DNA of 40,924 bases, from positions 1-40,924 of the IMG/VR virus record IMGVR_UViG_3300032092_000077; one strand, written 5' to 3'. Positions 5,718 through 32,078 of this stretch are shown piece by piece. The translations under genes and the position numbers were made by a program. Each line of letters begins with the position of its first letter. Position 1 is the first letter of the stretch. The DNA comes from a virus. Taxonomy: Duplodnaviria > Caudoviricetes. Below the pieces are notes generated by a model. It searched no databases. It had not been told where the DNA came from and saw nothing but the letters and a program-made list of their open reading frames with translations.

Positions 5718-8700
5718 TTACGGGGCGGTGAGCTCGGCCCCGAGGCGGGCGCGGGCCTGGGCCGCGGCGGTGGCATCCAACCGGCGCACGTACTCTTTGA
5801 TCTGGGCGCGGGTGTAGCCTTGCTGGCGCAGCGTGGCGATGTTGACCTGACCGAGGATCTCCTGGCGGGCCTGGCCCAGGGCCCGGTTCCACTCCCGCCG
5901 TTGGCGCCAGGTCAAGTCCGCCGGCGCGACACCCGCCACGGGCGCGCGCGGGCCGCGGTAGGTCAGCAGCTCGTTGGCGCTGAGTAGCTGGTGGACGGGA
6001 TCCTGCGTCAGACTGGTAAACGGCAGGGGCACGCCACTGACCGCGGGCACGGGCGCGCTGGTGTGAGTCCCCAGTTGCCAGTAGCGGACTTCGGGCTGGC
6101 CCGTGGTGGGGCTGGGCTCGTCGGGCAACAGGTAGGAGATCCCGGGCAACCGCGCGCCCAGGCCGCGTTGCGGCCGGGGATTGATCACGCTTTCCATCGC
6201 GCCCAGCAACGCCTGGCCCGGCACCAACCGGTTGAGCGTGTTGCTGGCCTCGGCCAGCACGGCATGGGTGCTGCCTTGTTGGGCGGCCAGCTTGACGCTG
6301 GTAAACAGGCTGCCCAGCAACCCGCCCGCCTCGCCGCGGCCGGCCAGCAACGCCTGCGCAAACGGCAGGCTGGCATACCGGGACAACCCGATCACGGCGG
6401 GCCGGTCGCCGCGCAACAAGCTTACCAGGAACAGCGCCGTGGACAGCGGCTCCACCCGCAACGACACGCGCACGCCGTCCGCGCCCACCCAGTCGCCGCT
6501 CTGGTAGTCCACATGGCCGCGGTCCTTGTCCTCATCGGGCGCGTCGCTGGGCGCAAACAGGGCATGGACCAACAGCAACCCGCCGATGCCCGTGGCGGTG
6601 CGGGTCAGGTAAGCGGCGATCTGCTCGGGCGTGGCCCGGCCGTCGCGCACGGCCCGCCAAAGGCGGGGATTGATCCCCACCATCTGCCCCGCCCACCGGG
6701 CCAGCTGGAACGGCCAGCGTCCAAAGGGAGTCACCAGCAAACGGAAAAACGTGTTGCGGGCAATTCGTTCCTCGACCGGGCTCAATGCACGGTTGAACCC
6801 CGCGGCGTTGCCGGCCGCGATGGCCGTCTCGATGGCGTGCGCGGGCGGGTCGGCCACGTATTGCTCGATGTAGTCCTGCGCGGCCGCGCCGCGCAACCCG
6901 TGACGGTCGGCGCTGGTGCGCGCCTCCTGGTAGAGCGCCGCCATGGCGGCCAGCCGTTTGGCGGCCAGGTCCGCCGCGCCCTTGGCGTAGAGCGGCGTGC
7001 CCACCAGCGCGTCGAGGCTCTTGCCGGCCCAGGTGCGGCGGGTGCTGAACGTGCCGCGGTCGCCCGTGGGGAACGCGCCCGCGCTGGGCGCGCCCAGAAT
7101 GTCGGTCTCGCCGCTGACGGTCCGGCCAAACGCTTCCTCCAGCCGCGCATCGAGTGGACGGCGGGCATGGCTGGCGCGGTGGCGCAGCGCGGCGACAAAG
7201 GCCGACGTGGCCGGCAAGCTCAACCGGCCCGTGCGCAGCGCGTGGACCAGGTCGTAGCCCGCGCCCTCGATGCGCTGGGCGGCCAGCTCGGCGGCGTTGG
7301 CGACAATGTCCAGCGAAAAGCTCGTGACCGAAAACAAGTTGAGCCGCCAGGCATCCACCAGGTACCGGCCCAGCTCGCGCGCGCCCTGCTCATCCAACTG
7401 GTGCACCTGGGCCAGCCGCGTGGCGATGGCGTTGTAGATGGGCTCGCGCACATGCGCGGCAATGTCGCCCGCCAACAGGTTGGCCAGCGCGGCCCGCTTA
7501 CCGGGATTGGTCTCCTGCTGGATCTTGGCGGCCCGGTCCCGCACCACGGCGGCCAGGGTCTCGTCGTAGGCGGGCAACCCGAGCTTGTCCTGCAAGGCGG
7601 TGTAGGCCGCCTCGGTGTCGAGCGCGCCCAGTGCGCTGGCCCGGAGCAACCGCTCCCCGGCGCTGCGCACGGCCCGCTTGACCTTGCCCTGCTGGGCCTG
7701 GCCGATCACGCGGGCCAACTCCCGCTGCTTGACGGCGGCCGTCTCCGCCTGCATGGCGGCGGCCACGTCCTGGGCCAGCTGGGCGGCCTGCAATTCGCCC
7801 AGGCCCGCTTGCGCGGCCAGCTTGGCGGCCAACGCCGCGGCGGTGGCGTCCGCGGTGGTGTAATGCTCATAGACCAACTGGCGGAGCTGGGCGCCGCGCT
7901 TGACGATCGCCGCGGCCGCCGCCGCGCGCAACGCGGGGCTGCCGGCCGCCAGGTACTGGGCCAACGGATCCTTGGCTTGTCGGGCCTGGCTGGCGCGCTC
8001 GGCCACGGGCGCCGCCGCCCTGGCATTGGCCTGCTCCAGGTTGCGCAACAGCCCGGCAATCAACGCCTGGTCGGCGCTGGGCAACCGCTGGCCGCGGGCC
8101 TTGGCCACTTGGCGCTGGGCGAACACTTCCCAACCTTCGGGAGTCAGGTACTGGAGCTGGTCCCAGGCGAACAGCTTGCGGGCATTGCTGACGGCGCGGC
8201 CCGTGGTCTCAAAGTAATCGGTGAGCCAAGAAAGCAGCTCGGCATGGTTGCGGCCCACCTGGGCGGCGCCGCGCCGATCGCCGTCGCGGGTCAGCTTGTT
8301 GTACCTTTCTTGGAGCAGGCGCCCGAGTTGGATCGCGGCCTCGGTGCGGACGTCGGGCGCGAGCTGGTTGGCCGTGTTGGTCACTTCCCGGTAGGCCTGC
8401 TCGACGCCGCCAACGCTGTTGATCCAGGCCGACGCCTCGCGGGCCATGGCATCGTCGCCTTTGACGGTGTAGCGCCGCTCGCCCTCGATGCGGGCGCGGC
8501 TGTGCGGGTCTACCTGGTTGTCGGGCTGGTCCAGGATCCGCCCCGCCAGCTTGTGCTCGCGGGTGCGGGAGAAACGAATGTCGGGGCGGTTTGGGTTGAA
8601 GCGTTCTGAGAGCGGAATTACTCGCCCTGCATCATCGCGAGTGATGGCGTCGGCGAGTTTGACATGCGCCGCACTGGTGGCGACGTGTACTTCGTGGCCC

Positions 8701-11700
8701 GGTCGTCCCCACGCATCGGTTTCGAGAATGCCGGTCTTGCCGGTAACCCTGTACACGGCTTGGTAGGTCAGCTCTGGGTCAGACCCGCCGTTGATCAAGC
8801 CCGCGACGAATGATGCATCATCTTGGGAATAGTTGGCCAAGTTGTTGGCGGCTTCCTCGATGACTGAAGGCAGTCCTTGATACGAAATATCGCCATAGTT
8901 CCACAGCGGGCTTGATCCTTCTTCGGCGGTTTCGGCTTCACTGTGAAGCACGCGCAGGATTTGCTTGATTTGCCGACGCGTGATTGTGAGACGCCGCGGG
9001 TCAAGCTGTTTGCCGCCGCGCAGATAAACTCGAAGAAGCCGCTCGCCGTGGCGCTCGGCATAACCTTTGGCCAGCGCTTCGTCATTGGTGAAGTAAAAGC
9101 CTTTGCCCTCGGTGGTGCCCTGGGCGCCCATCTTTCCCCAGTCGAAGACAGTGAATCCACCAGCACCGCCGTGCCACACGGGTCCAATCGTGAATCCTGC
9201 CTTGCGTGCAGCCGCGTCTACCATTTGCTGCGCTGTCGCTGTGTCGCCACGTTCAACAGCCGCCAAATATTGGCGGTCTTCCGCGGCTGTCACAGTGGCC
9301 CGCGATAGCCGCAGATCGCGGCGCTCGGTGTTGTCCCCTGAAAAGTGCTCGCGGGTGCGGGAGAGCGGCAAATCGAGTTGGCTGGGTTGCGGGGGCGGTT
9401 GCGGGGTTTGGTCGCCGCTGCCGCTCTCACGATTTACCAGGCGGAACCGCTCACCGGCAAAGGGGTCTTGCATCAACGCGGCCGCCTCGGCCGCGGACAC
9501 CGCCGCGCGCTGGTACGGGCCGCCGAGTCCGCGAATCTGTTCCTCGCTGAAACCGCGTTGTTGCATGTCCTGCACCGCCTGGGCGCGGGTGAGCGCGACA
9601 CCGCCCCAGTTGATCTTCTCGGCCATGAAGTCGTCGGCCAGATTGCGGCGGCGCGAAAGCATGACGCCCGGCGCGGTCAACGTGGCGTTACCGGCATGGA
9701 ACACACCCGCCTGGGCAGCGTCGCCTGCCTGCGTGCCCAGCGTGGCCAGGGCCTCGGTGGCGGCGGTGCGGACCCGCTCCAGGTTGGCGATGGTGTCGCT
9801 GGCGCGGCGGCGGAGCGTCCAACGGCTGCCGAGGGCCTGCAAACTGCGCTCCAACACGTCCAGCAACGTCTGCAACAGGTCGCGCACGGGCCCGGGAGCG
9901 CGCGCGGCCAGCCGCTGCCAGAAACCGGCATCGGCGGCCAGCTCGCCCACCAGCTCGGGGATAAACTCGTCGCGGGCCTCGGCGGCGCTGGCGGCGGGCA
10001 GGTCCGGCCCAAACTGGTCGTTGAATCGCGCCAGCCAGGCCTGCACGCGGGCGGGGTCGGCTTCCTGGAGGATCACCCGCACCAGCTCATTCCAAACGCG
10101 CGGGTTGGCTTGTTTCAGCCGATGCGTGGCCTCGTGGGTCACAGTCGACAACACGGGGTCGGCAAGTTCCACTGACAACCCGATGACGTTGGTACCCGGC
10201 AACTGCAGCCCGTTAATGCGCGGGCCGGTGCCGGTGCGCTCCAGCCAAACTACGCGCAGCCCGAGGGCTTGGGCGACGGCGTCAACGGTGCGGGCGACGG
10301 GGTGCTCGGTACTGACACGGGCTGGCCGGTAAACACGTTCACCACCAGGGCGTCCGAGGCGCATCTGCAAACGATCAGCGAGTTGGCCGGCGAGGGCTTC
10401 ATCGTGCTGGGCGGTGCCGGGAGCGTAACGCTGCGTGGGGCGGGCGGTTTCATCGCCCACAATCTCGCCCGCCAACGGGTGGGAGTCAAGACCGGAGTCG
10501 GCCTGTTGCGCCCGTGAAAACGGCACTGCCTCTTCGCTCTTTGCGGCGGTTTCTTCCCGCTCCACTTCCGCCTGCCAGTCGCGTTCTTCGGCGCGGCGCT
10601 CGGCGTCGGCCTCCAGTGCGTCCGCCGTGCCGTGATAGGCCGTGGGATAGTAAAAGCGCTGGCCGCGAAGCTCTTCATCGAGCGCGTTGTACAGGTCCGC
10701 GGGCGTGCTGCCCGCGGGCAGGAAACCCGCCTCGACGGCGGCCTCGACGTGGCTATCGGGCGCGTTGGCGGGCCGATTGGCCCGGTCAATCAACCCGCGC
10801 CGCTTGGCCAGCGAGTCCTGTCCCGCTACCAGCTGGGCAAAATCGGCGGCCATCTGCACCGGCCCGCCATCGGGCTTGGCCAGCGCGATGCCGCCCCGGC
10901 CGCGGACAAACTGGGTCAACGTCGTCGCGCCCGCCACGGGAGTGGCCACGGCGGCCGGCCGCGGGGGCGCGGCCACGGGCGCGTTGGGATCCCCGTTGCT
11001 GACCAGCAACGTGGCCAACTCGGCGGGGTCAACGGCCACGGGGGCGACGGCGGGGCGGGCCTCGGCCAGGGCGGCGGCGTCCAACTCGCGGGGCGCGGCG
11101 CCGTCGCGATCGGCCACGATGCTGGCCGTGGTCCGTCGGGCGTGCTCGTCGTTGAGGGCCTGGATCGTGGTCTCATTGGCCACGGCGAACTGGCGGCGGG
11201 TCTGGCCGCTGGCGGGGTCGCGGCGTAGTTTGTGCCAGGTGCCCTCGGCGTCGCGTTCGTACAGGTCCTGCTGCCAGGTCAGCAACGGCACGGGGCCCGC
11301 CAGGCGGGCGCGCAACTCGGCCAACCGAGCGGCGGCGGCGGGGTCGGCCACGGGAGCCGCGCCCAGGTCCTGGGCGGCCGTACCGGCTGCGTCGGACGTG
11401 GGAGTGAGTGTCGCAACTACAACGTCAGCGACGGGCGGCACTGTGCCGCCGCGGTCGGCGCCTGTTCCTGTGACGCGGGCATCTTCCGTGGTGGCGAAAA
11501 CTGCGGGGGCATTGGCCCCCGTGCTGCTCGCGGCGGCGCGGCTGTGCGCGGCGTTGATCGCAGCCAAAAATTCGGCATCGGTCCAGTCGTTCTCGGCGCG
11601 GGCCTGCAACAGGTCGGCCACGGCGGACGGGTCGGCGGCATCGAGCGCCGCCAACTGCGCAAAGGCCGCGGGCAACGGGTCCACCGCGCTGGCGGCGGCG

Positions 11701-12767
11701 GGGCGGGCGGCGGGCGCGGCGGGGCGGGCCGCGGCCGGCACGGGCGGGGGCGTGGCGGCGCGCTGGGTGCGGGCATAGCTGACGGGCAAGCCCAGCGCGG
11801 CAAACACGGTCGAGGCCGCTGCCGCGGGGCCCATCATTTGCTGGACGCGGTCCCACAAGGGCGGCGTGGGCACGTCGGCGGCCCGGTCCGCGCCCCACTG
11901 GCCCGCCTCGGTCACCAGCTCCTCGATGAACTCGGTCACGCCGATCCCCGCGCTGCGGGCGCTGGCCTGCAACGCGCGGCCCAGCCACGTTTTGACGGGA
12001 CGGGTCAGGGCGGCCATGGGTCGGCCCAAACCCGCCAGCTTTAATTGCAGCACATCGCTGACGGCTTCCACGCCGCCCTCGATCAGGCCTTGGGACAAGG
12101 CGTATTGCTGGCGGGCGTCCCCCGTCAAGGTGGCGGGGGCCGTCTCGCGGCTGCGGTCGTAGGTGCTGGCACCAAACAGGGCGCCCGCGACGGCGGCCGG
12201 GTTGCCCGTGGCCGCGCCCAGGCCCATGGCCGCCAGCGACGGCGTGGCCGTGCGGATGCCTTGTTGCAAGAAAGAAACCACGCCCGTGGCGGGGGCCTGG
12301 GGCAACGCGCGGGCCTCGGCGGCGCGCGCCTTGGCTTGCCAGTTGTCCTCCCACCACGATTGCCCGGGCAAACGGACCTGGGCCGCGGCCGGCCAGGCGG
12401 GCGGGCGCAGCGCGTCGTAATACGACGCCCCGGGCACGGTCCACGTCAAACCCTGGCGGGCCATGGACGGCGCACCGGCCAGGCCGCGCGCCACCAGCGC
12501 CATGGTGTCCAGGCCCGCGCCCTGCAACGTGCTGGGCCAATCGGCCGCCACGGGCGCCGCGGGGGCGGGTCCCGACGTCTGGACGGGCGCCGCGCTGTGG
12601 GCGGCGGCGGTCAGGGCGGGCAGGGGGGCCGCGGCCGCGGGCCACGCGGGGCGTTGCCGGGCGGCGGCGAAAATCTCATCGAGGTCGGCGGTGGTGGGGG
12701 GCGCCGCGCCGTCCCAGTCGAGTTGGAAGCGTTGGCCTGTGTGTTGGTCGGTGACGGCGTAACGCAT
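5718..12767 (-). CDS. Large polyvalent / internal virion (ejection) protein, 2349 aa, with zincin-like HExxH and ADP-ribosyltransferase-like domains
   Basis: Last gene of the late operon; VTHEATH motif; VWHGG...GKGFYFT...VYLR ART-like motifs; IPLSERFN...DIRFSR linker typical of phage polyvalent proteins. Confidence 0.75.
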   Translation of the reverse strand: MRYAVTDQHTGQRFQLDWDGAAPPTTADLDEIFAAARQRPAWPAAAAPLPALTAAAHSAAPVQTSGPAPAAPVAADWPSTLQGAGLDTMALVARGLAGAPSMARQGLTWTVPGASYYDALRPPAWPAAAQVRLPGQSWWEDNWQAKARAAEARALPQAPATGVVSFLQQGIRTATPSLAAMGLGAATGNPAAVAGALFGASTYDRSRETAPATLTGDARQQYALSQGLIEGGVEAVSDVLQLKLAGLGRPMAALTRPVKTWLGRALQASARSAGIGVTEFIEELVTEAGQWGADRAADVPTPPLWDRVQQMMGPAAAASTVFAALGLPVSYARTQRAATPPPVPAAARPAAPAARPAAASAVDPLPAAFAQLAALDAADPSAVADLLQARAENDWTDAEFLAAINAAHSRAAASSTGANAPAVFATTEDARVTGTGADRGGTVPPVADVVVATLTPTSDAAGTAAQDLGAAPVADPAAAARLAELRARLAGPVPLLTWQQDLYERDAEGTWHKLRRDPASGQTRRQFAVANETTIQALNDEHARRTTASIVADRDGAAPRELDAAALAEARPAVAPVAVDPAELATLLVSNGDPNAPVAAPPRPAAVATPVAGATTLTQFVRGRGGIALAKPDGGPVQMAADFAQLVAGQDSLAKRRGLIDRANRPANAPDSHVEAAVEAGFLPAGSTPADLYNALDEELRGQRFYYPTAYHGTADALEADAERRAEERDWQAEVEREETAAKSEEAVPFSRAQQADSGLDSHPLAGEIVGDETARPTQRYAPGTAQHDEALAGQLADRLQMRLGRPGGERVYRPARVSTEHPVARTVDAVAQALGLRVVWLERTGTGPRINGLQLPGTNVIGLSVELADPVLSTVTHEATHRLKQANPRVWNELVRVILQEADPARVQAWLARFNDQFGPDLPAASAAEARDEFIPELVGELAADAGFWQRLAARAPGPVRDLLQTLLDVLERSLQALGSRWTLRRRASDTIANLERVRTAATEALATLGTQAGDAAQAGVFHAGNATLTAPGVMLSRRRNLADDFMAEKINWGGVALTRAQAVQDMQQRGFSEEQIRGLGGPYQRAAVSAAEAAALMQDPFAGERFRLVNRESGSGDQTPQPPPQPSQLDLPLSRTREHFSGDNTERRDLRLSRATVTAAEDRQYLAAVERGDTATAQQMVDAAARKAGFTIGPVWHGGAGGFTVFDWGKMGAQGTTEGKGFYFTNDEALAKGYAERHGERLLRVYLRGGKQLDPRRLTITRRQIKQILRVLHSEAETAEEGSSPLWNYGDISYQGLPSVIEEAANNLANYSQDDASFVAGLINGGSDPELTYQAVYRVTGKTGILETDAWGRPGHEVHVATSAAHVKLADAITRDDAGRVIPLSERFNPNRPDIRFSRTREHKLAGRILDQPDNQVDPHSRARIEGERRYTVKGDDAMAREASAWINSVGGVEQAYREVTNTANQLAPDVRTEAAIQLGRLLQERYNKLTRDGDRRGAAQVGRNHAELLSWLTDYFETTGRAVSNARKLFAWDQLQYLTPEGWEVFAQRQVAKARGQRLPSADQALIAGLLRNLEQANARAAAPVAERASQARQAKDPLAQYLAAGSPALRAAAAAAIVKRGAQLRQLVYEHYTTADATAAALAAKLAAQAGLGELQAAQLAQDVAAAMQAETAAVKQRELARVIGQAQQGKVKRAVRSAGERLLRASALGALDTEAAYTALQDKLGLPAYDETLAAVVRDRAAKIQQETNPGKRAALANLLAGDIAAHVREPIYNAIATRLAQVHQLDEQGARELGRYLVDAWRLNLFSVTSFSLDIVANAAELAAQRIEGAGYDLVHALRTGRLSLPATSAFVAALRHRASHARRPLDARLEEAFGRTVSGETDILGAPSAGAFPTGDRGTFSTRRTWAGKSLDALVGTPLYAKGAADLAAKRLAAMAALYQEARTSADRHGLRGAAAQDYIEQYVADPPAHAIETAIAAGNAAGFNRALSPVEERIARNTFFRLLVTPFGRWPFQLARWAGQMVGINPRLWRAVRDGRATPEQIAAYLTRTATGIGGLLLVHALFAPSDAPDEDKDRGHVDYQSGDWVGADGVRVSLRVEPLSTALFLVSLLRGDRPAVIGLSRYASLPFAQALLAGRGEAGGLLGSLFTSVKLAAQQGSTHAVLAEASNTLNRLVPGQALLGAMESVINPRPQRGLGARLPGISYLLPDEPSPTTGQPEVRYWQLGTHTSAPVPAVSGVPLPFTSLTQDPVHQLLSANELLTYRGPRAPVAGVAPADLTWRQRREWNRALGQARQEILGQVNIATLRQQGYTRAQIKEYVRRLDATAAAQARARLGAELTAP
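8553..9364. repeat. 20-bp direct repeat pair GTGCTCGCGGGTGCGGGAGA (8553-8572 and 9345-9364) flanking the ART-like domain
   Basis: Exact match, 792 bp (264 codons) apart; both encode SRTREH on the minus strand. Confidence 0.9.
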
Positions 12768-14112: not shown

Positions 14113-15171
14113 TTAGGCGGCGGCGGGCAACTGGCGGGTGTAGGCGGCCATCTGGGCCAGCTGCAACAGTTGGTTGAGCTCGGCATTGCCGGTTTGATAG
14201 CTCGTGTCGGCCAAGATATTGGCCAGCACGCGGGCGGCATCGCCCTGGAGGCTGCCCTCCAGGCCCGCGAATCCCTGCGTGGCCGCGGCATAGGCCTGGC
14301 GGGCGGACTGGTTGCGATCGGTGGCGGCCAGCATCAGGTCGCGCCGCTCGCCGTTGCCCTGTCTTGCCATCTGCATCCGCAACAGGGCCACGGTGCGCGG
14401 GTCCAGCGCCTTGCCGGCCTGGGCGTACTGTTGCTGGAGCACGCTGATCGCGGCGTTGAATTGGGCGGCCTGCTGGTCCTGTTGGCGGCCCAGTAGGTAA
14501 TTGATCACCTCGGGCGAGTAGGGGTCGCTGCGCAGCCGATTGACGGCCCCCGCGAACTGCTGCATGGCGGGCCCGTTGACCTGGGCCTGCATCCGGCCCG
14601 CGGCCTGCACGGCCTGGGCGCGGTCGGCCAGGGCCCGCTGGCGGGCATCGGCCACGTTGGCGGCATGGCGGGCCAACAAGTTGTCCATCCCATTGGGGCC
14701 GCGCGCGGGCTGATTGCCGGCCGCGCCCAGGCGGCCCGCAAACTCGTCGGGATTGCCCTGGCGGAAACCCGAAGCGCGCGGGTTGGCCAGCGAACCATCG
14801 GCGTTGTAGATCCCCGATAACGCGAGGTTGGCGGGCGGATTACCCGCCACGCTGCCGGGCGTGGCCGCCAGCGCGGGCCAGGGCGACGGGGTCGGGCTTG
14901 CCGGCAAGGGCGCGGGGCGCCACGGGGTGAGCGGCGGCGGGCTCTGGGTCCACAAGTTGCCCAGCGCCCGCACCGAGTCGGCCAGCGAACGGTCGAGGTT
15001 GTCGGGCGCGAACTGGGGGTTGTTGTGGTAGTACTGCTGGGCCAGGGGCGCGTACACGTCCGCCACGGGGTCCCATGCGCCGCCCTGGTCGGCGTAGAAC
15101 GGGATCAGGGCGTCGGGGTCCTGCACGCCCTGCGGAAAGTAGCCTGCTTCTTCGCTGTAGTAACCGTTAGT
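14113..15171 (-). CDS. Putative internal virion protein, proposed non-canonical start at ACT 15171
   Basis: Frame is open upstream of GTG 15126 to a TAG at 15184-15186; AGGAGG lies 5 nt before in-frame ACT AAC; Ala/Gln-rich helical body. Confidence 0.6.
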   Translation of the reverse strand, partial: TNGYYSEEAGYFPQGVQDPDALIPFYADQGGAWDPVADVYAPLAQQYYHNNPQFAPDNLDRSLADSVRALGNLWTQSPPPLTPWRPAPLPASPTPSPWPALAATPGSVAGNPPANLALSGIYNADGSLANPRASGFRQGNPDEFAGRLGAAGNQPARGPNGMDNLLARHAANVADARQRALADRAQAVQAAGRMQAQVNGPAMQQFAGAVNRLRSDPYSPEVINYLLGRQQDQQAAQFNAAISVLQQQYAQAGKALDPRTVALLRMQMARQGNGERRDLMLAATDRNQSARQAYAAATQGFAGLEGSLQGDAARVLANILADTSYQTGNAELNQLLQLAQMAAYTRQLPAAA

Positions 15172-15219
15172 CTGAGCCTCCTTCTACGCCATCGCGGCGC
15201 GGGTTCCAAGTCTTTTGTT

Positions 15220-17241
15220 TCATCGGGGCGCCCCCGTGGGTTGGGCGATCAGGGTCACGCCGTTCAGTTGCCAGGGCTGGGCGGGGCCATCGGTGCCAAA
15301 CTCTCCCTGCCAGTTCTCACCGATGCCGTACTGCGCGGCCACGCACAGGTCCGTGGCGTTGACGGGGAGCAACGTCGCGTTGAGCGTCAACTGCCGCCCC
15401 CGCGCCCAGGTGTAGGGCCGCAACCAAAGGTTCGCGCCCTGTCCCGTGGCGGCGATGCTGGCCTCGCACCAGCGTTTTTGGCCGACTGTCTTGACGCTCA
15501 ACCGCGGCGTCTGCCAGTAGCTGCTGTACCCGCCCAGCATGATCTTGTCGCCCACGCTGACATTGGGCGACAACGCGCCCCCGTAATACGCCGTGTCCAC
15601 CGTCACCGTCTGGCCCGCGGCGGCGCTGATCAACCGGCGCTGGCCTGCGCCCGTGCCACTGAGCACGGTCAGGACTGCGCCCGCGGCGCTACTGCTGCCG
15701 GCTACGTCGTCAAACCACGCATCATCACACGTAATATCGTTCCCGTTCACGCCGCTGACGGTGCCGATGCAACTCATACCCTGGACGCCATCCAGGCTGC
15801 CGGTATCGCAGACCCAGACCCCGCCGTGATAGGTGCCGATCAACAAACGAGTCTCGTCATCGGAAAACTTCTCGGACCGGCTGCTCGCCGCGGGCAACCG
15901 GCAAATCCACCACTGGCACGGCCGCTCCCGCGTTGGCTGGCTGAAATCGGCAATCAACATGAGGTCGGTCACTGCCGTCTCACCGATCCGCGTCAACCAC
16001 AGCACGTACCACTTCCGGGGTTCGTACCATTGGGCATGGGCCATGTGGTCCCGGCCATGGTTCACGCCATCCCGCAGCAACGGCTCAATGTCCTGGCTGA
16101 TCAACTGGGGACGGTTCGTGGCCGTCTGGAACTCGCCCCCGTGCATCAGGTACACTCCCCCCGCGCCGCCGTACCACAAGGCGTTGCCGTTGCCGTCCTG
16201 CACCATCGTAGCGTGGCCCGCACAGCCAACTTCCGTGGACACGCAAACCGGTGTCCAGCCCGTCGAATCCCGCACCAGCAAGTAGGTACTGCGATGCTTG
16301 CCGACAACGACGTTGCCCCGGCACACGCCGAGCGCGGTAATCTCGTCGCCATCATCGCCGCCCACGTCCACCGAGTTGAACACGCTCAAGGGATCGTACC
16401 CCTCGATGTTGTCGGGCAACGCATTGGTGAAGTACACCGTGTTGGGACTGCCCATGATCCGATAGGTGGCATCAGTATCGGTGCTGCCCTGGTAATCGCC
16501 GTTCAAGGTCGCTGTCTGGGTCGCTTCGTCAAAGCTCTCGATCACGTAGCCGAGCACGGCGCCTGTCACCAGGAACGTCTTGCCCTCGACGGCACGGGTC
16601 AAATCGGCATTGGTGAACACCACGGTGTCATCGCCATTGGTCACGCTGGCCGTACCTTCGGTCCACGGCTTGGTCCCGCCCAGCGCAATCTGGGTTGGCA
16701 ACGCCCGCGCCACGGCGCACGCGGGTAAAAACTCGTTCTGGGTGGCCACGGTCAGCACGGTCAGGCTGCCGTCGCTGACGGTGATCTCGTAACTGGTGGT
16801 GACGTTGTCGGCCACGGTCGCCTGGGCTGTCACCCGATACAATTCCGTCCCGCCCGCCAAGGTCATGTAAACGACGCGGGCATTCACGGCCGCGTTGTCC
16901 GACAACGGCAGATTGCCAATGGTGATCTTGCCGTTGGCCGTTACCGGCACGGCCGCGGACTGGATCGGGCCGCTCTCGGCCAAAATCACCCCGCCCGGCG
17001 TGGTGACGGCAAACGTGACGGCGACGATATGCTCGCCCGCGGTCATGCTGCCGCCCGAGCCTGCCACGGTTGTCATCGCGGCGAGTTGCGCGGCGGTCGG
17101 GGGGCGCACACCCCACAAACGGAGCGCACTGCCCAGGCCAGTATTGCACCGGTTCGCATTGATCCCGTCGCAAATGATCTCGCGCCCACCCAAGCGGGCC
17201 GAACTTGGCAGCCAGTCAATCGGTATGTAGGTATCACTCAT
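15220..17241 (-). CDS. Tail nozzle / head-stabilisation-like protein
   Basis: Beta-rich; GDEITALG, VSTEVGC, GGVY and ISQDIEP motifs resemble podoviral nozzle proteins; ATGA overlap at 17241. Confidence 0.6.
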   Translation of the reverse strand: MSDTYIPIDWLPSSARLGGREIICDGINANRCNTGLGSALRLWGVRPPTAAQLAAMTTVAGSGGSMTAGEHIVAVTFAVTTPGGVILAESGPIQSAAVPVTANGKITIGNLPLSDNAAVNARVVYMTLAGGTELYRVTAQATVADNVTTSYEITVSDGSLTVLTVATQNEFLPACAVARALPTQIALGGTKPWTEGTASVTNGDDTVVFTNADLTRAVEGKTFLVTGAVLGYVIESFDEATQTATLNGDYQGSTDTDATYRIMGSPNTVYFTNALPDNIEGYDPLSVFNSVDVGGDDGDEITALGVCRGNVVVGKHRSTYLLVRDSTGWTPVCVSTEVGCAGHATMVQDGNGNALWYGGAGGVYLMHGGEFQTATNRPQLISQDIEPLLRDGVNHGRDHMAHAQWYEPRKWYVLWLTRIGETAVTDLMLIADFSQPTRERPCQWWICRLPAASSRSEKFSDDETRLLIGTYHGGVWVCDTGSLDGVQGMSCIGTVSGVNGNDITCDDAWFDDVAGSSSAAGAVLTVLSGTGAGQRRLISAAAGQTVTVDTAYYGGALSPNVSVGDKIMLGGYSSYWQTPRLSVKTVGQKRWCEASIAATGQGANLWLRPYTWARGRQLTLNATLLPVNATDLCVAAQYGIGENWQGEFGTDGPAQPWQLNGVTLIAQPTGAPR

Positions 17242-19449: not shown

Positions 19450-19947
19450 TCACCACTTCAACGACAAACCGCCTGCCAGGTACGGCCGCGCCGCATCGCT
19501 CTGGCTGCCGACGCTGACAAACCAGTCCACGGCTTCCAGGTTGCCGGGCAGCTTGCCGAGTAGGCCCGTGGCGTTCTTGGTGTCGGCCAACACGGGGGGC
19601 AATGCGCTCAACCGCCCGCACAAGCCCACGCCCACCAGGTGCTTTTCCGTCTCGGTCGCGTAGAGGTACACCAGCCCGGGCCGCACACTGGATTGGAGGC
19701 GCAATTTGCTCACCCGGATTTGCCAGGTGGCCACGTTGCCCTGCACGCCCACCACGGCGGAGACCTCACTGCGCCAGTGGTCGCGCGGGTCGGCCACGAT
19801 GGCGGCCCCGCCCATCAACTGGGTGTTGTCCCCGATCAACGCGATCAGGTTCCTGGTCTTTTCGACATTGGCGGGGGGCAGGTTGGTTTGCGCGCGGGCG
19901 GGGAGCGCGGCGCTGGCCAGGATCAGGCTGAGGATGAGCTTCTTCAC
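19450..19947 (-). CDS. Exported protein, possible small outer-membrane beta-barrel
   Basis: GTG start overlapping the upstream stop, with AAGGAG RBS; signal peptide; ends YLAGGLSLKW. Confidence 0.55.
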   Translation of the reverse strand: MKKLILSLILASAALPARAQTNLPPANVEKTRNLIALIGDNTQLMGGAAIVADPRDHWRSEVSAVVGVQGNVATWQIRVSKLRLQSSVRPGLVYLYATETEKHLVGVGLCGRLSALPPVLADTKNATGLLGKLPGNLEAVDWFVSVGSQSDAARPYLAGGLSLKW

Positions 19948-20803: not shown

Positions 20804-21574
20804 TCACAGCCCATAGGTTCCCTTGGTCAGGTTGTAGAGGTTGACGACCTCGTTGCTGGTCAGGGCGCGGTTGAAAACTTTAACATCATCCAATAGACCC
20901 TTGTATGCGTTGGCAGTCGTCGTGTCGCTCGTCCGTTCCGCGCCCAAGCTGTAGTAACTCGACGCGCCGTAGGTGTAACTTATGTTCGTCGTCGCCGCCC
21001 ATGCGCCGTTAAGGTAAATGGTCTTGCTGTCGCCGCTCAACACGACAACGACATGGTTCCAATTCGTAAAACCGCCTGAACAGAAAACATCTTCCGCGAT
21101 AAATGTGCGCCCGACCGACAGTTTGGTGTTTGAGTGGCTAAGAAAGCCGATGAACAAATCCCCCGCCTGATTGGTGCCGGAGTCGAAAAACATATCGTGC
21201 GTGCTCGCGCCATTTCCGGTTTTCTTGGCAAACAGCGACACCGAGCAGTTAGTCGAGTTAAAGCCGGTTCTGTTGCTTGATCTAGCCGACGCCGTTCCGC
21301 CGTCGAACACCGCCGCGCCGCCGACGGTATTTGTCCAGATGCTTGTCGCCGACCCGATGCCGTCATTGCTTGCCGCAGCGTCGTAGTAATTGGTGCCGTC
21401 GTTGGCGGAGTACGTGAGCCAAATGACGCAGTTGGTGAACAAGCTCGTCGGCATGACGCTGATCTTGCCGATCTGGTCGCGGTCGTATCGTTTCGCCGTG
21501 CGCGAGTAGCCGACCGTATTCTGCGCCAGCGCGTTGCCGGTCAGCAACAAGAGTATGGTGAGCAGGGCTTTCAT
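20804..21574 (-). CDS. LamG / concanavalin-A-like domain protein with signal peptide
   Basis: WNHVVVV...IYLNG...YKGLLDDVKVFNRALTSNEV..LY; lower GC than the genome core. Confidence 0.85.
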   Translation of the reverse strand: MKALLTILLLLTGNALAQNTVGYSRTAKRYDRDQIGKISVMPTSLFTNCVIWLTYSANDGTNYYDAAASNDGIGSATSIWTNTVGGAAVFDGGTASARSSNRTGFNSTNCSVSLFAKKTGNGASTHDMFFDSGTNQAGDLFIGFLSHSNTKLSVGRTFIAEDVFCSGGFTNWNHVVVVLSGDSKTIYLNGAWAATTNISYTYGASSYYSLGAERTSDTTTANAYKGLLDDVKVFNRALTSNEVVNLYNLTKGTYGL

Positions 21575-23466: not shown

Positions 23467-24086
23467 GCCCATTCTCCCAAAATCATCGTCAGTTCGGTCC
23501 AGCCGCCTTCGTCCACCAGGCGCACCAGGTACCTACCGGCATTGGTCCGTCCCGTCAGCACAATCCCAAACCCTGCCGCGGCAAATGCCACGTCGCCCGC
23601 CCGCAACGCGCTCGAATCCACCGGCACCATCTTCAACTGCGGGTTACCGGGATCCACGTCATCCACATGCACCCGATAACTCTTGCCGCTCGGTGATGCC
23701 ACCAGCACCAGGCCGTCCTGCGGACTGGCCAGCACCTTGTCAGTCCCGCGGATCGTGCCCGCGGGTTCCACCAGTGCCCCGCGCTCGCTCGGGCCGCCGT
23801 CATCCAGGCACGCCAACCGGTACAGGTTCCCGCGGGTCAACCCGCGAAACACCACACCAGCCAGCGGATCCGGGAAGTACCAGCGCGAATAGAGCAACGT
23901 CGCCCCGCCACTCGTGGTGGGCGTGGCACTCTCGCCACTGGTCGCGCCGCTGGCAGTCGAGCCGTCGCCCGCTACCGCCCCGTCCGTGGCCGCCGTCCGA
24001 AACCCGCGCGCCTCCAGCTCGGCGCGCCGCGCTTCGGTGAACGCCGCGGGCGCCGTGCCGCTTTCGAATGTCGGGTAATAGCCCAC
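23463..24086 (-). CDS. Hypothetical virion-associated protein
   Basis: Tiles the late operon; three similar repeats (G....g..G..YR..vdD.G). Confidence 0.6.
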   Translation of the reverse strand: MGYYPTFESGTAPAAFTEARRAELEARGFRTAATDGAVAGDGSTASGATSGESATPTTSGGATLLYSRWYFPDPLAGVVFRGLTRGNLYRLACLDDGGPSERGALVEPAGTIRGTDKVLASPQDGLVLVASPSGKSYRVHVDDVDPGNPQLKMVPVDSSALRAGDVAFAAAGFGIVLTGRTNAGRYLVRLVDEGGWTELTMILGEWA

Positions 24087-24093
24087 GGTGCGG

Positions 24094-24468
24094 TTAGTTC
24101 CCCCAAAGCTCGCGGACCAAACCCGTGCGGGGCGCGCCCGTGGTGCCGAGGCTGTAGGTGCCGCTGTCCATGATCGGGAATTTCTGTTCCCAGGTCGTGG
24201 CGGGCGCGATCACGGCCACGGGGCGGTCGTTGCTGCTGCCGGCGTAGAGCACCAGCGCATCGGCGGCATTGGTGTTTATCACCGCAAGCAACGCGCGCTC
24301 CTGGCCGACGATGTTGGTGGTGCACACGGTCGGCTGGTTGGTGTTGGCCGCGGCGGTCACGCTGCGGCTGGTCTGGGTGCGGACTTGAATCGAGGGCAGG
24401 TTGCCGGCCAGCGCGGCGGCGGCGCCGAGCACACTGACGGCCACGATGAGGCGGACATGACGTTTCAT
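24094..24468 (-). CDS. Small beta protein with signal peptide
   Basis: AAGGAG RBS; MKRHVRLIVAVSVLGAAAALA; C-terminus (VRELWGN) resembles that of 12836-13240 (VEVWGIPNR). Confidence 0.7.
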   Translation of the reverse strand: MKRHVRLIVAVSVLGAAAALAGNLPSIQVRTQTSRSVTAAANTNQPTVCTTNIVGQERALLAVINTNAADALVLYAGSSNDRPVAVIAPATTWEQKFPIMDSGTYSLGTTGAPRTGLVRELWGN

Positions 24469-24866
24469 GCTGTGACTCCTTGGGGTTGGCGGACGTGAAA
24501 ACGGATCTGGTCGAAGCCGCGTCGAAACGCGGCGGTGGATCCCACCGTGGGCCGCACGCACAGGTCGAAGCGCACGGCATCGGCCAACGCGGCCTTGCCG
24601 GCCGCGTCCTCGCGGGCGGCGTCGCGGTCCAGCGCGGCCTGGTGGGCGGCCTGCTGGCGGCGAAAGTTTCTCCAGAGGTCTGGATTCTTGCGGCCATCGC
24701 CCGCGCGCACGGCATCGAGCACATGCTGGCCCAGCGTGGCGGCCTCGCACAAGCGCTGCCGCTGGCCGTTGCCGAGCACGCGCTCGACGCGGTGCTGGCC
24801 GTTGGGCAGGCGGCGGGTGCGGAGGTGCGGGTCAATCGCTCGGAGGCGTTGGGCAAAATTTTTCAT
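24465..24866 (-). CDS. Hypothetical protein downstream of the capsid gene
   Basis: MKNFAQRLRAIDPHLR; ATGA overlap with the next gene. Confidence 0.65.
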   Translation of the reverse strand: MKNFAQRLRAIDPHLRTRRLPNGQHRVERVLGNGQRQRLCEAATLGQHVLDAVRAGDGRKNPDLWRNFRRQQAAHQAALDRDAAREDAAGKAALADAVRFDLCVRPTVGSTAAFRRGFDQIRFHVRQPQGVTA

Positions 24867-24890
24867 GGGGTGTTGTGGGTGTCGGGTTCG

Positions 24891-24927
24891 GCGTCCCCGC
24901 CCGCCCTTGCGAGCGGGCGGGGAACGC
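24891..24927. terminator. Stem-loop after the capsid gene (possible terminator or stabiliser)
   Basis: CCCCGCCCGC-8 nt-GCGGGCGGGG; no clear U-tract on the minus strand. Confidence 0.4.
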
Positions 24928-24940
24928 TTTACCGGGTGGG

Positions 24941-26443: not shown

Positions 26444-26500
26444 TGTGTTTTCTCCTGTCTGCATTGTCGTGGTGCTTGGGTGTTGTCGTTGGTTGTCGGG

Positions 26501-27442
26501 TCAGGCGGCGGCGGGTTGCGGGGCGGCTTGCACCTGGGCCCGCAACGTGGTGAGCATGCGATGCGCGTCCTCAACCGATTGGGGCTCGCGTTGCATCAGC
26601 AACGGGCCCGTGGCCGGTGCCCCCGCCGTGGGGGCGCCGCCCGGCAACGCCGCGAAAGCACCGGCGGGCTGGCCCGCGGGCGTCACGCTGCGCTTGACGT
26701 AGTTGCCCAGCCGCGCATCCCAGCTTTGCTGGACGGCGCGGGCGATCTCGACGGGATCCACCAGGTGCGGGTTGCCGTAGGTCTGAACGGCCTCGGCGTA
26801 CCGGCGATTGAAGTCCTGGCGGGTGATGGCCGAAAAATCGGCATCCATCAAGATCGGGGCCACGGCGGCCTGCTGGCCATTGCCTTTGCCGAGATACTCG
26901 TACATCTGCTCGGCCTGCTGCCGCTGCATGGCTTCCTGCTGCAACCGATGCGTCTGGTTGATCGGGGCCAGCATTTGCTGGAGCGGCGTCAACGCCTGCT
27001 CCAACTGCTGGCTGAGCGCGGTGCTCAGTTCCTGGCGCAACGCCATCAATTCGGGGTCCTGCAACTGGGTTGCGGGGGGTGCCGTCATCGAGGGCGCGGG
27101 CAACGCGGGCATCATTCCAGAAGGGAGTGACGCGGGCGCGTGGCCCAGCGGCGGGTGGACCGGCGACGGCGCACCATGGGCCGTGCTGCTGGTCAACTGC
27201 TGCAACGTCTGCATGATCTGGACGTTGAGCTGTTCCTGCCGCTGCATCCGACGATTGAACTCGCCCAGCAAATTCTCCACGGGCGGCGTCGCGGGCGCGT
27301 TGGGACGCGCGGGCGCGGCGGCGGCCGAGAGGGCCCCGTTGGGCGGCGGGGTGGCAGGCGGAGATCCTGCGGTTGCTCCGGGATGGGGTGGGGTGGTTGT
27401 CGCTGGCGGGGCGACGGGTGCGCCGGGGTTGGTCGGGTTAGT
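26501..27442 (-). CDS. Capsid scaffolding-like protein, proposed non-canonical start at ACT 27442
   Basis: Gln/Pro-rich coiled coil between portal and capsid. Frame is open 54 codons upstream of GTG 27280; AGGAGG lies 5 nt before in-frame ACT AAC; in-frame TGA 9 codons further up. Confidence 0.65.
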   Translation of the reverse strand, partial: TNPTNPGAPVAPPATTTPPHPGATAGSPPATPPPNGALSAAAAPARPNAPATPPVENLLGEFNRRMQRQEQLNVQIMQTLQQLTSSTAHGAPSPVHPPLGHAPASLPSGMMPALPAPSMTAPPATQLQDPELMALRQELSTALSQQLEQALTPLQQMLAPINQTHRLQQEAMQRQQAEQMYEYLGKGNGQQAAVAPILMDADFSAITRQDFNRRYAEAVQTYGNPHLVDPVEIARAVQQSWDARLGNYVKRSVTPAGQPAGAFAALPGGAPTAGAPATGPLLMQREPQSVEDAHRMLTTLRAQVQAAPQPAAA

Positions 27443-27545
27443 CCTGACCTCCTGTTTGGTTTCGTGTCACCGCGGCCGTGCGGGGTGCTCGCGTATTATG
27501 CCCCGCGCGAGATTCGGGGAGCATGGCCGCTGCGTTCACGGAAAT

Positions 27546-27621
27546 TGGATGCGGGAGTCGGACTCGAACCGACGTTTCCTCGTGACTAACGAGGTATCCT
27601 GGTCCACTAGAAGATCCCGCC
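27546..27621 (-). tRNA. Atypical 76-nt tRNA, anticodon AGU, 1:72 mismatch, encoded CCA
   Basis: GGCGGGA-TC-TTCTAGTGGACCAGGAT-A-CCTCG-TTAGTCA-CGAGG-AAAC-GTCGG-TTCGAGT-CCGAC-TCCCGCA-T-CCA folds as a cloverleaf. Confidence 0.88.
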
Positions 27622-27643
27622 AGAAATGGTTGTGATTGTTGAC

Positions 27644-29680
27644 TCACGCCGCCCCCTTTGGGTTGGGCTGGCCGGGCATGGCTTGAGCGGCCATCATGCC
27701 GCCGGGGCGCGGGCCCTGGCTGGCCGGCAACGGCACGGGGCCGCCAACCGGCAGCGCCGCCTGCACCATCATCATCCGGTGCATGTCGGCATGGGCCATA
27801 ATCAGGCGCTGGGCCATCGGACCGGCTTCGGGGTGCTCCTTTAACCAGAGCACATGCTCGTCAATGTGGCACACGTGGTCATCCCAGGGCTGCGGCGCCG
27901 CCCAGCGGCCCTGTTCAAACAGCGCGTTCTCGGTCTGGGCCCGGTCAATGTCGGGCTGGTCGGCAAACTCGTGGCGGAAACCGCCGAGGTCGAGTTGCTG
28001 GTGCAACCACTTGACGTTGGGCCGGCCGGTGCCGTCCACGATCATGCCGTTGCGCCAGAGCTCGATCAACTGGCCGTTCCACGCCGCGGCATCGCGCGGC
28101 ATCGCGCTGCCTTTAACGACGTCCACGTCCGCATACAGGTTCTGCGCGGCCATCAGTGACAGCGTGTAGCCCTTGGTCTCGCCCACAATCCGCAACAGTT
28201 TCTCGGGCGGATAATACTGGCGGGCGAGCGCCAGCGTGATCCGCGCGTCGTCGGCGTCGGCCTGCTCGCGTTCGCTGGTCAGGGTGGCAAACTTCTGCTG
28301 GCCGCTGGCCAACAAACTGTTGAACTGCTGGCCGCTGCGGACCTGGGCGTCATTCATCCCGCGCATGATGTCGTAGAGGCCAAACTCGTCATCAATGTCA
28401 CGCAGCGTCTCGGCAATCTCCTGCGACGCGCCCGGCAACGCCTGCGCGCCGAGGATGGTCGGGGCCGCGCCGTTGGCGCCGAGCTGGCGCTCGTACTCAA
28501 TGAAGCTGCCGTGAATGTTGGTCACCTGGTCGGGGTCGGCCAGCGTGCCGCGCTCCACCAGGATGCGGTTGCGGCCCATGGCCAGGCGGTTCATCGTCTG
28601 GTCGGTCTTAATCCGGTTCAACCGGTTCTGCGACGGCCGCGCCGCCTCGGGGAAACCGATCCCGTAGAACTCGCCCGGCACCTGGATGCCACGGAGCCAC
28701 ACACAGCCCAGCTGCAACGTCTTGGGCGCCTCGGGCGGGAACAAGCCGACAAACGGGTTGACGTCGTACTCCACCACGGTGCGGTTGACGACCACCACCC
28801 GCCGCCCCTGGGGCCAACGCTCGCACGGCAGCTCGTAATACTCAAACACCCGCCCCGTGCCTTGCTGGCCGCCCTGCGGCCCCTTGGCGCCCGCGGGCGA
28901 AAACAGGAAGTCCAGACGTTCGGACATGCCATCGTACAGGTCCCGGTACTCATCCGCGCCGAGCTGGTCGGCAAACTTCGGATACAACTCGCGCAGCTCC
29001 TCCAGGGGCCGCCGCGCATCGAACAGCACCGCCCGCGCGTCGCGCGCGCTTTTGAGTCGCGTGGGGAACACGTGGGCGTGGTAAATCGAGTACACTTCCT
29101 TGCGGATCTCGGGGAACTGCACCGTGGCCGGGCCCTGCCCGGGCAGCTGCACTTGCATCGGCTGGCCGCCTTTGGGGTCGAGATAGGTCCGCACGCACAC
29201 CGTGCCGTCCATCACCCGCAACTCGTCGCTCTCGGCCTTGAGCCGTTCGGCGTTGTTGATCCGGCCAATGTAGTCCAGCACCGAGCGGGCGACCATGGCA
29301 AATTGCTTGTCGCGGGTCTGCCGCGTCGTCGGGATCGGCTCCACCTGGCTTTGGCCGCGGGCCAGCAACCCCAGTAGTAACCGCACGTTGGGCTGGATCC
29401 GGTTGGCCACTTCGCGCAACTCGCCCTCGGGATTCTCGACGTCGAGCAGCCCAAACGCGCCGCCGTCGAAGCGGGTCCACTGGTACCCGAGGTAGTAGGC
29501 CCGGTTGAGGTAGCTGTTGGCGTAGAGCCGCAACTTGGCGTGGTTGGCCGCGCTGTGGCGCTGGTGGATCTCGTCCACCAGGGCCGAGGCCTGGATCGTG
29601 GACGGCAACCGCACGCTCTCGCGCAGTGGTTCGCTGACGGCGCTTTGCTCGCGCACGGTGTTGGCGTCCTGGATCAGCAT
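27644..29680 (-). CDS. Portal protein
   Basis: 678 aa downstream of terminase; NRIQPNV..LLG.L, FYGIG..E..RPSQ..LN and DDH..HI..H patterns of P22-like portals. Confidence 0.8.
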   Translation of the reverse strand: MLIQDANTVREQSAVSEPLRESVRLPSTIQASALVDEIHQRHSAANHAKLRLYANSYLNRAYYLGYQWTRFDGGAFGLLDVENPEGELREVANRIQPNVRLLLGLLARGQSQVEPIPTTRQTRDKQFAMVARSVLDYIGRINNAERLKAESDELRVMDGTVCVRTYLDPKGGQPMQVQLPGQGPATVQFPEIRKEVYSIYHAHVFPTRLKSARDARAVLFDARRPLEELRELYPKFADQLGADEYRDLYDGMSERLDFLFSPAGAKGPQGGQQGTGRVFEYYELPCERWPQGRRVVVVNRTVVEYDVNPFVGLFPPEAPKTLQLGCVWLRGIQVPGEFYGIGFPEAARPSQNRLNRIKTDQTMNRLAMGRNRILVERGTLADPDQVTNIHGSFIEYERQLGANGAAPTILGAQALPGASQEIAETLRDIDDEFGLYDIMRGMNDAQVRSGQQFNSLLASGQQKFATLTSEREQADADDARITLALARQYYPPEKLLRIVGETKGYTLSLMAAQNLYADVDVVKGSAMPRDAAAWNGQLIELWRNGMIVDGTGRPNVKWLHQQLDLGGFRHEFADQPDIDRAQTENALFEQGRWAAPQPWDDHVCHIDEHVLWLKEHPEAGPMAQRLIMAHADMHRMMMVQAALPVGGPVPLPASQGPRPGGMMAAQAMPGQPNPKGAA

Positions 29681-29898
29681 CGCGCCACCGCCTTGCCGGT
29701 TCGCGGCTTGGTCGCGCGCTGGAACAGCCGCGCCAACCAGCCATCGGCCAGCGCCACCAGCGTGCCCGCGGGCATCCCCCAGGCCAGGTGCTTGGACAGG
29801 TTGCCCCGCACCGTCACCGGGAACTCCCGGCCGTCACGGCCCAGCACCCGCACCGTGCGGGTCTTGGGTGGCCGCGGTTGTTTCCAGCCAAACATCAT
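29674..29898 (-). CDS. Hypothetical protein
   Basis: Overlaps both neighbours in the late operon. Confidence 0.55.
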   Translation of the reverse strand: MMFGWKQPRPPKTRTVRVLGRDGREFPVTVRGNLSKHLAWGMPAGTLVALADGWLARLFQRATKPRTGKAVARC

Positions 29899-30191
29899 AC
29901 CGGCAACCCCGTGATGGAGCCCGGTGTCTGCTCGGGCGGTGGCGGCGGGCGCGGGGCGGGGGGCGGGGTGGGCACGGCGGGCTGGGTCGCCCGCAACCGC
30001 GCGATCTCCGCCTCGGCCAGGGCCCGTTGCGCCGTGGGCGCGGTCAACGCCAGCAACCGGTCATGCAACTCGCGGTTCTGCTGGAGCAACGCCGCGCACT
30101 GCGGGCAAGGGCGCGCCAGTAACTCGACAAGTTGGCCGTGTTTGGCCGGCACGCCTTGTCGTTGACGGCAAAAAAAGTCGATGAGTGTCAT
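29895..30191 (-). CDS. Hypothetical protein (CxxC, coiled coil, Pro-rich tail)
   Basis: AGGAG RBS; tiles the operon. Confidence 0.65.
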   Translation of the reverse strand: MTLIDFFCRQRQGVPAKHGQLVELLARPCPQCAALLQQNRELHDRLLALTAPTAQRALAEAEIARLRATQPAVPTPPPAPRPPPPPEQTPGSITGLPV

Positions 30192-30201
30192 GGGTAATCT
30201 C

Positions 30202-32070: not shown

Positions 32071-32078
32071 AGAGTTGG

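Follow-up and report, generated by a model that had tools for sequence, protein, structure and literature searches.

Translation of two putative virion genes in the genome of a tailed phage raised the question of how a long reading frame can be opened at a codon that the host initiator tRNA does not match. The genome was IMG/VR virus record IMGVR_UViG_3300032092_000077 (Duplodnaviria; Caudoviricetes), and the window that we analysed was the whole phage contig of 40,924 nt, with a G+C content of 66.6%. At two places, here called site 1 and site 2, a short open reading frame (ORF) ended in GAC TAA C behind a Shine-Dalgarno (SD) sequence, and the codons ACT AAC, in the +1 frame relative to GAC TAA, opened a long frame. 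The initial annotation had noticed this geometry, likened it to the +1 frameshift cassette of prfB, and named four-base reading by the tRNA of the phage, initiation at ACU and coupled re-initiation as options. From the comparison with a related lineage, L003, we consider it rather likely that the locus represents a natural orthogonal start code. Namely, an initiator-like tRNA of the phage would key two virion genes to a codon unmatched by the host initiator, lineages would re-key the anticodon in step with both start codons (ACT with AGU, AGT with ACU), and throw-away ORFs would hand over the ribosomes. The features concerned were the following:

27546..27621 (-), phage tRNA (ARAGORN; Rfam tRNA, 37 bits)
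27438..27647 (-), upstream relay ORF of site 1, 69 aa, with a poor codon score (-0.43 per codon)
27447..27453 (-), SD of site 1, AGGAGGT, a 7-nt run (-11.0 kcal/mol) with the end of GGAGG 5 nt from ACT
27437..27443 (-), site 1, G-ACT-AAC (GAC TAA C in the upstream frame); G-AGT-AAC in L003
26501..27442 (-), putative scaffold gene, 313 codons from ACT, between the portal and major capsid genes; L003 homolog at E=1e-10
15167..15223 (-), upstream relay ORF of site 2, 18 aa, starting by ATGA overlap with the stop of the tail gene and ending in GAC TAA
15177..15183 (-), SD of site 2, AAGGAGG, a 7-nt run (-11.7 kcal/mol) with the end of GGAGG 5 nt from ACT
15166..15172 (-), site 2, G-ACT-AAC (GAC TAA C in the upstream frame); G-AGT-AAC in L003
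14113..15171 (-), putative ejection (internal virion) protein gene, 352 codons from ACT; L003 homolog at E=5e-18

Co-variation of the anticodon and the proposed start codons

The lineage L003 was 44% identical to the window in the capsid protein, 46% in the portal and 39% in the large terminase. Its tRNA gene was at the same location as that of the window but had the anticodon ACT (ACU) instead of AGT (AGU), and both homologous genes had G-AGT-AAC behind an SD where the window had G-ACT-AAC. Thus, between the two lineages, a change of base 35 in the anticodon was matched by a change of the middle base in each of two separate codons. Since the anticodon and both codons co-varied, it was very likely that the phage tRNA reads the ACT/AGT sites. 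The overlapping triplets that had been pointed out in the anticodon loop were indeed present (UU AGU CA holds AGU and GUC), and they co-varied with the sites as well: GUC/AGU with GACU in the window and CUC/ACU with GAGU in L003. Moreover, AAC after ACT/AGT, C after TAA and G at position -1 were each found at all four sites, two in the window and two in L003. Six distant loci, representing about four lineages with 22-31% capsid identity, lacked this tRNA and had ordinary ones. Their pre-capsid gene, of 319-331 codons from stop to stop, started at an ATG that was located behind an SD near the beginning of this frame.

Other readings of the tRNA were considered. A demand for the codon in elongation was rejected, since the window used ACT for 21 of its 7989 codons and L003 used AGT for 11 of 4163. 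Pairing of seven loop bases with the site (GUUAGUC with GACUAAC) was true of the window only, failed in L003 and was likewise rejected. A function as an attachment site was unlikely with the integrases 25 kb distant.

Coding potential and SD spacing

At site 1 of the window there was no ATG, GTG or TTG for 54 codons past ACT, and at site 2 the first canonical codon was a GTG located 15 codons in and lacking an SD. In the L003 scaffold, the alignment placed the conserved motif NLxGExNRRxQ upstream of the first ATG. At site 2 of L003, the 52 codons after AGT scored +0.97 bits per codon and the 14 codons before it in the same frame scored -1.94. The proline-rich scaffold leaders scored near zero (-0.20 and +0.08), so codon scoring said little for site 1. 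These alignments and scores indicated that the stretch ahead of the first ATG is coding and that the frames would be translated from ACT/AGT or from an earlier point. Gene callers chose the downstream GTG/ATG and produced truncated gene models.

The spacer between the SD and ACT/AGT was 5, 5, 6 and 6 nt at the four sites and 6-11 nt in nine ATG/GTG genes of the window. The downstream GTG/ATG alternatives had SD runs of merely 2-3 nt. Among the 18 window starts scored, only the integrase gene (-11.4 kcal/mol) matched the SDs of the two sites. In folding predictions, the SD was not consistently sequestered (mean unpaired 0.45-0.59).

The motif GACTAAC was present in four copies on the minus strand of the window, and the two copies outside the sites were internal codons without an SD. 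The TAA at each site followed automatically from ACT plus AAC, C was frequent after TAA (three of the five TAA stops among the 22 main genes), a GTGA overlap was cheap in this genome (third-base G 40%), and the frame through the tRNA was open in 27% of 5000 shuffles. Therefore, the geometry in the window alone was only modestly beyond chance, and its reality rests on the comparison with L003 and with L018, a near-identical strain of the window phage. An ATGA overlap, in contrast to GTGA, was not cheap (third-base A 5.9%).

Similar arrangements were seen elsewhere in the window. At 24086-24099 (-), a possible third site, a 124-aa gene ended in AAC TAA C, and ACT AAC CGC ACC GTG opened a 211-codon frame. 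Here, base -1 was A, a G-rich SD-like run abutted ACT at 12 nt from GTG, and the gene was absent from L003. The small terminase gene ended in GAG TAA C both in the window (32070-32091, -) and in L003 (835-849), and this motif was rejected as a site because it did not share the reading frame of the large terminase gene. The window interval also had ACC AAC in the large-terminase frame, 9 nt upstream of the ATG of that gene and 7 nt past an SD run of 6 nt, an arrangement that L003 did not keep.

The phage tRNA

One tRNA gene was located between the portal gene and the next gene of the window. The window copy had the anticodon AGU, C37, a G1xA72 mismatch, G2:C71, C3:G70, U73 and an encoded CCA. 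In comparison to L003, acceptor pairs 2-7 were invariant, and compensatory changes were found at three anticodon-stem and three T-stem pairs. Positions 1 and 72 were unpaired in both copies through different bases, GxA in the window and CxU in L003. Thus, both copies had the acceptor end of an initiator (1x72 mismatch, G2:C71, C3:G70) but, with AGU and ACU, not its CAU anticodon for Met. The 1x72 mismatch together with pairs 2:71 and 3:70 has been described as the determinant of formylation by Fmt (PMC5389676). The anticodon loop had 7 nt on a 5-pair stem in both copies, rather than the enlarged 8-9 nt of suppressor loops. Its bases 34-37 were complementary to the four bases of each site (AGUC with GACU, ACUC with GAGU), so that C37 of both copies faced the G at -1 at all four sites. 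In initiators, base 37 has been reported to pair with mRNA base -1 (PMC10018350).

We compared 93 viral loci sharing the 5' motif of this tRNA scaffold. The 1x72 mismatch was found at 11 of 16 CAU loci and at 2 of 41 Gln/Glu loci, with G-U counted as paired, one unparsed locus per set and near-duplicates included; the remaining 36 either carried a different triplet or were no tRNAs. BLAST gave 59 phage matches, of which 20 were listed. These aligned to just the 3' portion of the tRNA (E 0.004 to 0.6), and the 10 annotated ones among the 20 were all tRNA-Met or tRNA-fMet. Additionally, a looser scan for this tRNA type was made over 15 of 64 parts of the collection. This D-arm and C37 were shared by 85 loci, of which the window and L003 were the only two to have the 1x72 mismatch, G2:C71 and C3:G70 as well. 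At 20 loci, two of them the known ones, starts with an SD, a G and the cognate codon were tested, and no convincing new case was found. Viral CAU tRNAs with G1xA72, three G at 29-31 and U37 were observed at four loci (L038, L054, L070 and L081). A further locus (L313 near 301, -), with short flanks only, had a tRNA-like gene with the anticodon AAT, C37 and a full anticodon stem.

Conservation of the short upstream ORFs

The short ORFs of the window were as the initial annotation had described them. The 18-aa ORF (15223-15167, -) had the translation claimed, its ATG overlapped the TGA of the tail gene, and it ended in GGA GGC TCA GAC TAA C. The 69-aa ORF (27647-27438, -) started by a GTGA overlap with the portal stop, crossed the tRNA and ended in GGA GGT CAG GAC TAA C. 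Conservation of these ORFs in relatives, proposed there as a check, was seen at site 1 and in part at site 2.

At site 1, an ORF fed by a start ended at the TAA in all three arrangements (window, L018 and L003). The distance from tRNA base 2 to GAC/GAG was 177 nt in both lineages, and the frame was open in both. The chance of an open frame, from 5000 shuffles each, was 0.27 in the window and 0.45 in L003 (jointly about 0.27 x 0.45). Both other frames were closed in the window, and one of the two was closed in L003. In the window, the open frame was fed from the GTGA overlap; in L003, a 184-aa gene took this role. In L018, a portal-coupled 125-aa gene stopped before the tRNA, and an ATG 5 nt past its stop fed the same frame; the 125-aa and 184-aa proteins had a weak likeness (E=0.008). 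The portal-tRNA interval thus existed as two alleles in near-identical strains, one of 68 nt (window 27622-27689) and one of 448 nt (L018 273-720) that had a different portal end and the 125-aa gene. Both alleles were present in one public run, where a diverged copy of the window allele kept the frame open.

At site 2, the ATGA-AAA start was kept at the stop of the tail gene in both lineages, but the GAC/GAG-TAA frame was used in one of the two. The ORF of L003 had 11 codons, and its TAA overlapped the SD 11 nt before AGT, outside the GAG TAA frame, in which the sole start was a TTG lacking an SD. The peptides of 18 aa (window) and 11 aa (L003) shared nothing beyond MK. Stop and start overlapped at both window sites, at site 1 of L018 and at site 1 of L003, a distance suited to coupled re-initiation. 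Overall, the short ORFs look selected rather than incidental, and they would presumably be translated.

Proposed mechanism

With moderate confidence, we take the phage tRNA to be a private initiator at ACT/AGT that probably acts on ribosomes just off a short upstream ORF. Coupled re-initiation, which had been mentioned initially as a third option, was the best explanation, backed by the kept ATGA-AAA start and by the L003 mini-ORF that ends on the SD. The features and their co-variation were read directly from the genomes, and from them we infer the steps of translation. The portal and tail genes led into short ORFs ending on or just before the site. The terminating ribosome would stay on the mRNA, held by the SD, and would move 1 nt (both window sites and L003 site 1) or about 14 nt (L003 site 2). 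The tRNA would then enter the P site with bases 34-36 paired to ACU/AGU and C37 paired to the G at -1. In the weakest step, a host synthetase would charge the tRNA and Fmt would formylate it. By tRNA identity rules, candidates for charging would be threonyl-tRNA synthetase through G35/U36, or the aspartyl- or glutamyl-tRNA synthetase through the shifted GUC/CUC triplet. It is predicted that the scaffold and ejection proteins would be made only after mature phage tRNA builds up, and that they would begin with a residue other than Met, free of any fused leader peptide. The initiator model explains the 1x72 mismatch, the spacing, the unrelated leaders (11, 18, 62, 69 and 184 aa) and site 2 of L003, where an ORF ending on the SD suits re-initiation and not a +1 fusion.

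On the other hand, a number of points weighed against this model. The tRNA and both sites were read in only two independent lineages, the window group and L003. The frame at site 2 of L003 was one base from the window geometry and had one contig as its basis, and at site 1 a +1 fusion fitted all three arrangements equally well. C37 was not special to this tRNA, as the 85 loci with this base included many phage Glu/Asp tRNAs of ordinary appearance. The anticodon stem of the window copy (U29-C30-G31) had neither the three G:C pairs of initiators (3GC) nor G30, and that of L003 (A29-G30-A31) kept only G30:C40 of the 3GC. Moreover, U11:A24 of both copies and U73 of the window copy are unlike E. 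coli tRNA-fMet. Neither a synthetase nor a formyltransferase was detected among the ORFs scanned, and at most some host synthetases may be candidates for charging. Initiator mutants without G30 failed to sustain E. coli (PMC5389676), a 1x72 tRNA with an altered anticodon stem can elongate, binding EF-Tu if slowly formylated (PMC6393288), and re-initiation in E. coli requires the same initiator features as de novo initiation (PMC2268962). Because of this shared requirement, the initiator model must overcome the missing 3GC. An extended SD reportedly bypasses the 3GC defect, to go by the title of one paper.

Alternative explanations

If a host tRNA performed a classical +1 shift of the prfB type and the phage tRNA played no part, this would account for the internal SD, the stop followed by C and the long +1 frame at both window sites, and C followed the stop at all four sites. 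However, prfB has a CUUU slippery site 3 nt past the SD and then a stop and C (PMC12421855, PMC10798248), whereas our sites read GACU and GAGU without CUUU or a U-run, their SD-to-GAC/GAG spacers were 4, 4, 5 and 5 nt, their stop was TAA and not TGA, and the mini-ORF at site 2 of L003 ended 11 nt before AGT in a frame other than that of GAG TAA. Re-pairing of host tRNA-Asp or tRNA-Glu on ACU/AGU would be poor, with at most one or two pairs after GAC to ACU or GAG to AGU, and the co-variation of the anticodon would be left unexplained. By these comparisons the sites of the window and L003 are not members of the prfB family, and a host-tRNA shift is extremely improbable. The four-base idea of the initial annotation, in which the phage tRNA is itself a +1 frameshift adaptor and yields leader-scaffold or leader-ejection fusions, is possible but doubtful. 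The route, to be held just as tentatively, would begin with A-site entry at GAC/GAG via bases 35-37, followed by a pause at TAA-C aided by the SD and a shift of the duplex by one base that sets 34-36 on ACU/AGU. This adaptor would make use of the full match of bases 34-37 and of the open, start-fed frame through the tRNA in both lineages, and the TAA-C at every site would resemble the stop and C of prfB. An anticodon stem without 3GC would suit it, unformylated 1x72 tRNAs can bind EF-Tu (PMC6393288), and an offset anticodon through loop re-stacking has been proposed (PMC5009743). However, at site 2 of L003 the mini-ORF lay outside the GAG-TAA frame, which had the SD-less TTG only, so this site must be an error or take a second slip. 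The adaptor would also have to outcompete host tRNA-Asp/Glu, the 1x72 mismatch was retained in two different forms, the leaders of 18, 62, 69 and 184 aa were unrelated and mostly poorly coding, and TAA-C was common in this genome. Most suppressor tRNAs pair no more than three loop bases at once, and there is little precedent for a 7-nt loop that reads four bases (PMC5009743).

De novo initiation by the phage tRNA at ACU/AGU on the SD alone, with the short ORFs and the TAA as by-products of the AAC second codon, shares the tRNA, SD and co-variation evidence with coupled re-initiation. Cleavage by RNase P at the tRNA would even detach site 1 from its upstream start, and the two SDs of the window were as strong as those of any start scored. 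We nevertheless consider it unlikely, for it does not explain why the ATGA-AAA start was kept in both lineages despite the rarity of third-base A, why the frame at site 1 was open and fed in three of three arrangements, or why AAC was present at four of four sites. It is quite improbable, too, that the tRNA is uncharged or has some other role (a decoy or a processing site) while the genes start weakly at ACT/AGT by the host initiator or at the downstream GTG/ATG. The lack of an obvious charging route and the missing 3GC would agree with such a role, and downstream GTG/ATG codons are present and were chosen by gene callers. However, the matched change of the anticodon and two separate codons would then be a coincidence, and the downstream starts had no SD and would cut off the conserved motif in L003.

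Genomic context

According to PHROG and Pfam matches, the window encoded terminase, a P22-like portal, major capsid and tail proteins, ParB, DnaB and two tyrosine integrases. The genes upstream of the two sites were:

27644..29680 (-), portal gene (PHROG 156, Pfam P22_portal), with its TGA overlapping the start of the 69-aa ORF
15220..17241 (-), tail/head-closure-like gene (PHROG 8040, E=6e-6), with its start placed by codon scoring and its TGA overlapping the ATG of the 18-aa ORF

The names of the two genes behind the sites are putative and go back to position and Atlas leads below 0.9, without family matches. For the scaffold the lead was Phage-scaffold (0.87, 13% of members, a lead only) and the position was as in distant relatives; for the ejection protein the lead was P22_gp7 (0.89, 22% of members, likewise a lead only). 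No sigma-70-type promoter was found in 24500-33500 of the window, and the public sequencing runs listed for the phage included no RNA run.

Relatives were gathered by collection scans with capsid and portal alignments. These yielded L003 as the one informative lineage, the near-identical strains L001, L018 and L019, and 14 distant loci; at least eight further relatives were represented by proteins. A scan with the next capsid group gave no further relative, as did both genome-collection scans, and cultured-phage records contained no close relative of the phage.

Some observations concerned other parts of the window. The major capsid protein and several late proteins (24941-26443, 24094-24468, 20804-21574 and 19450-19947, all -) had basic-then-hydrophobic, signal-peptide-like N-termini as judged by eye, and the N-terminal extension of the major capsid protein was common to its close capsid relatives. 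A 2349-aa protein (5718-12767, -) matched Pfam ART-PolyVal (ADP-ribosyltransferase in polyvalent proteins) at residues 1197-1262 (E=2.4e-7). Off-diagonal BLAST matches revealed a tandem repeat of about five copies with a 33-nt period at about 32817-32977. The two tyrosine integrase genes were convergent and adjoined a ParB-like gene (487-2600).

Significance and comparison with known systems

Our literature search, which mostly reached papers outside subscription and without supplements, returned engineering papers and reviews only, and no natural phage tRNA reading a non-AUG start or a four-base codon. As far as these searches reach, non-AUG initiation by a matching tRNA was known from engineering only. 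If true, the natural case would mean that phages can recode starts as well as stops, that one small RNA could time or gate capsid assembly, and that there is a ready-made orthogonal pair with C37, a base toxic on the E. coli initiator. If the frameshift adaptor holds instead, a tRNA that naturally decodes four bases by means of a 7-nt loop would be equally new. The two natural keys (AGU/ACT and ACU/AGT) make the claim directly testable. Truncation of such genes by gene callers could mean that viral catalogues conceal further cases.

Among known systems, prfB (PMC12421855, PMC10798248) had in common with our sites the internal SD, the stop followed by C and the long +1 frame. It differed in its slippery site, its shorter spacer, its usual TGA and its re-pairing host tRNA; here, in addition, the geometry was lost at site 2 of L003 and a dedicated tRNA gene co-varied with the site. 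Termination/re-initiation coupling (PMC2268962) was similar in the overlapping stop and start, the aid of the SD and the use in phage structural operons. Unlike the coupling described in that source, our sites had throw-away relay ORFs, a start codon not matched by the host initiator and a 5-nt overlap (NNT-AA) that is impossible for ATG, GTG or TTG starts.

With bacterial tRNA-fMet and the CAU initiator-type tRNAs of phages, the phage tRNA shared the 1x72 mismatch, G2:C71 and C3:G70, and GxA and CxU mismatches were also found in phage CAU tRNAs on the same scaffold. Unlike these, it had AGU or ACU for CAU, no 3GC, C37 and, in the window copy, U73. The complementarity of base 37 to base -1 at all four sites resembled the four-base initiator pairing of PMC10018350, with C37:G(-1) for A37:U(-1); toxicity prevented that study from testing a C37 version of E. 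coli tRNA-fMet. Engineered initiators with A34 work and carry a formylated residue other than Met (10.1101/2021.05.25.445580; PMC11744186). Similar to the engineered E. coli i-tRNA(AAC) for GUU starts, the phage tRNA combined the acceptor stem of an initiator, an anticodon with A34 that the host set does not contain, and a matching non-AUG codon behind an SD. However, the engineered initiators are laboratory constructs that kept the 3GC stem and A37, whereas the phage tRNA was natural, lacked 3GC, had C37 facing G at -1, and has switched its key between lineages.

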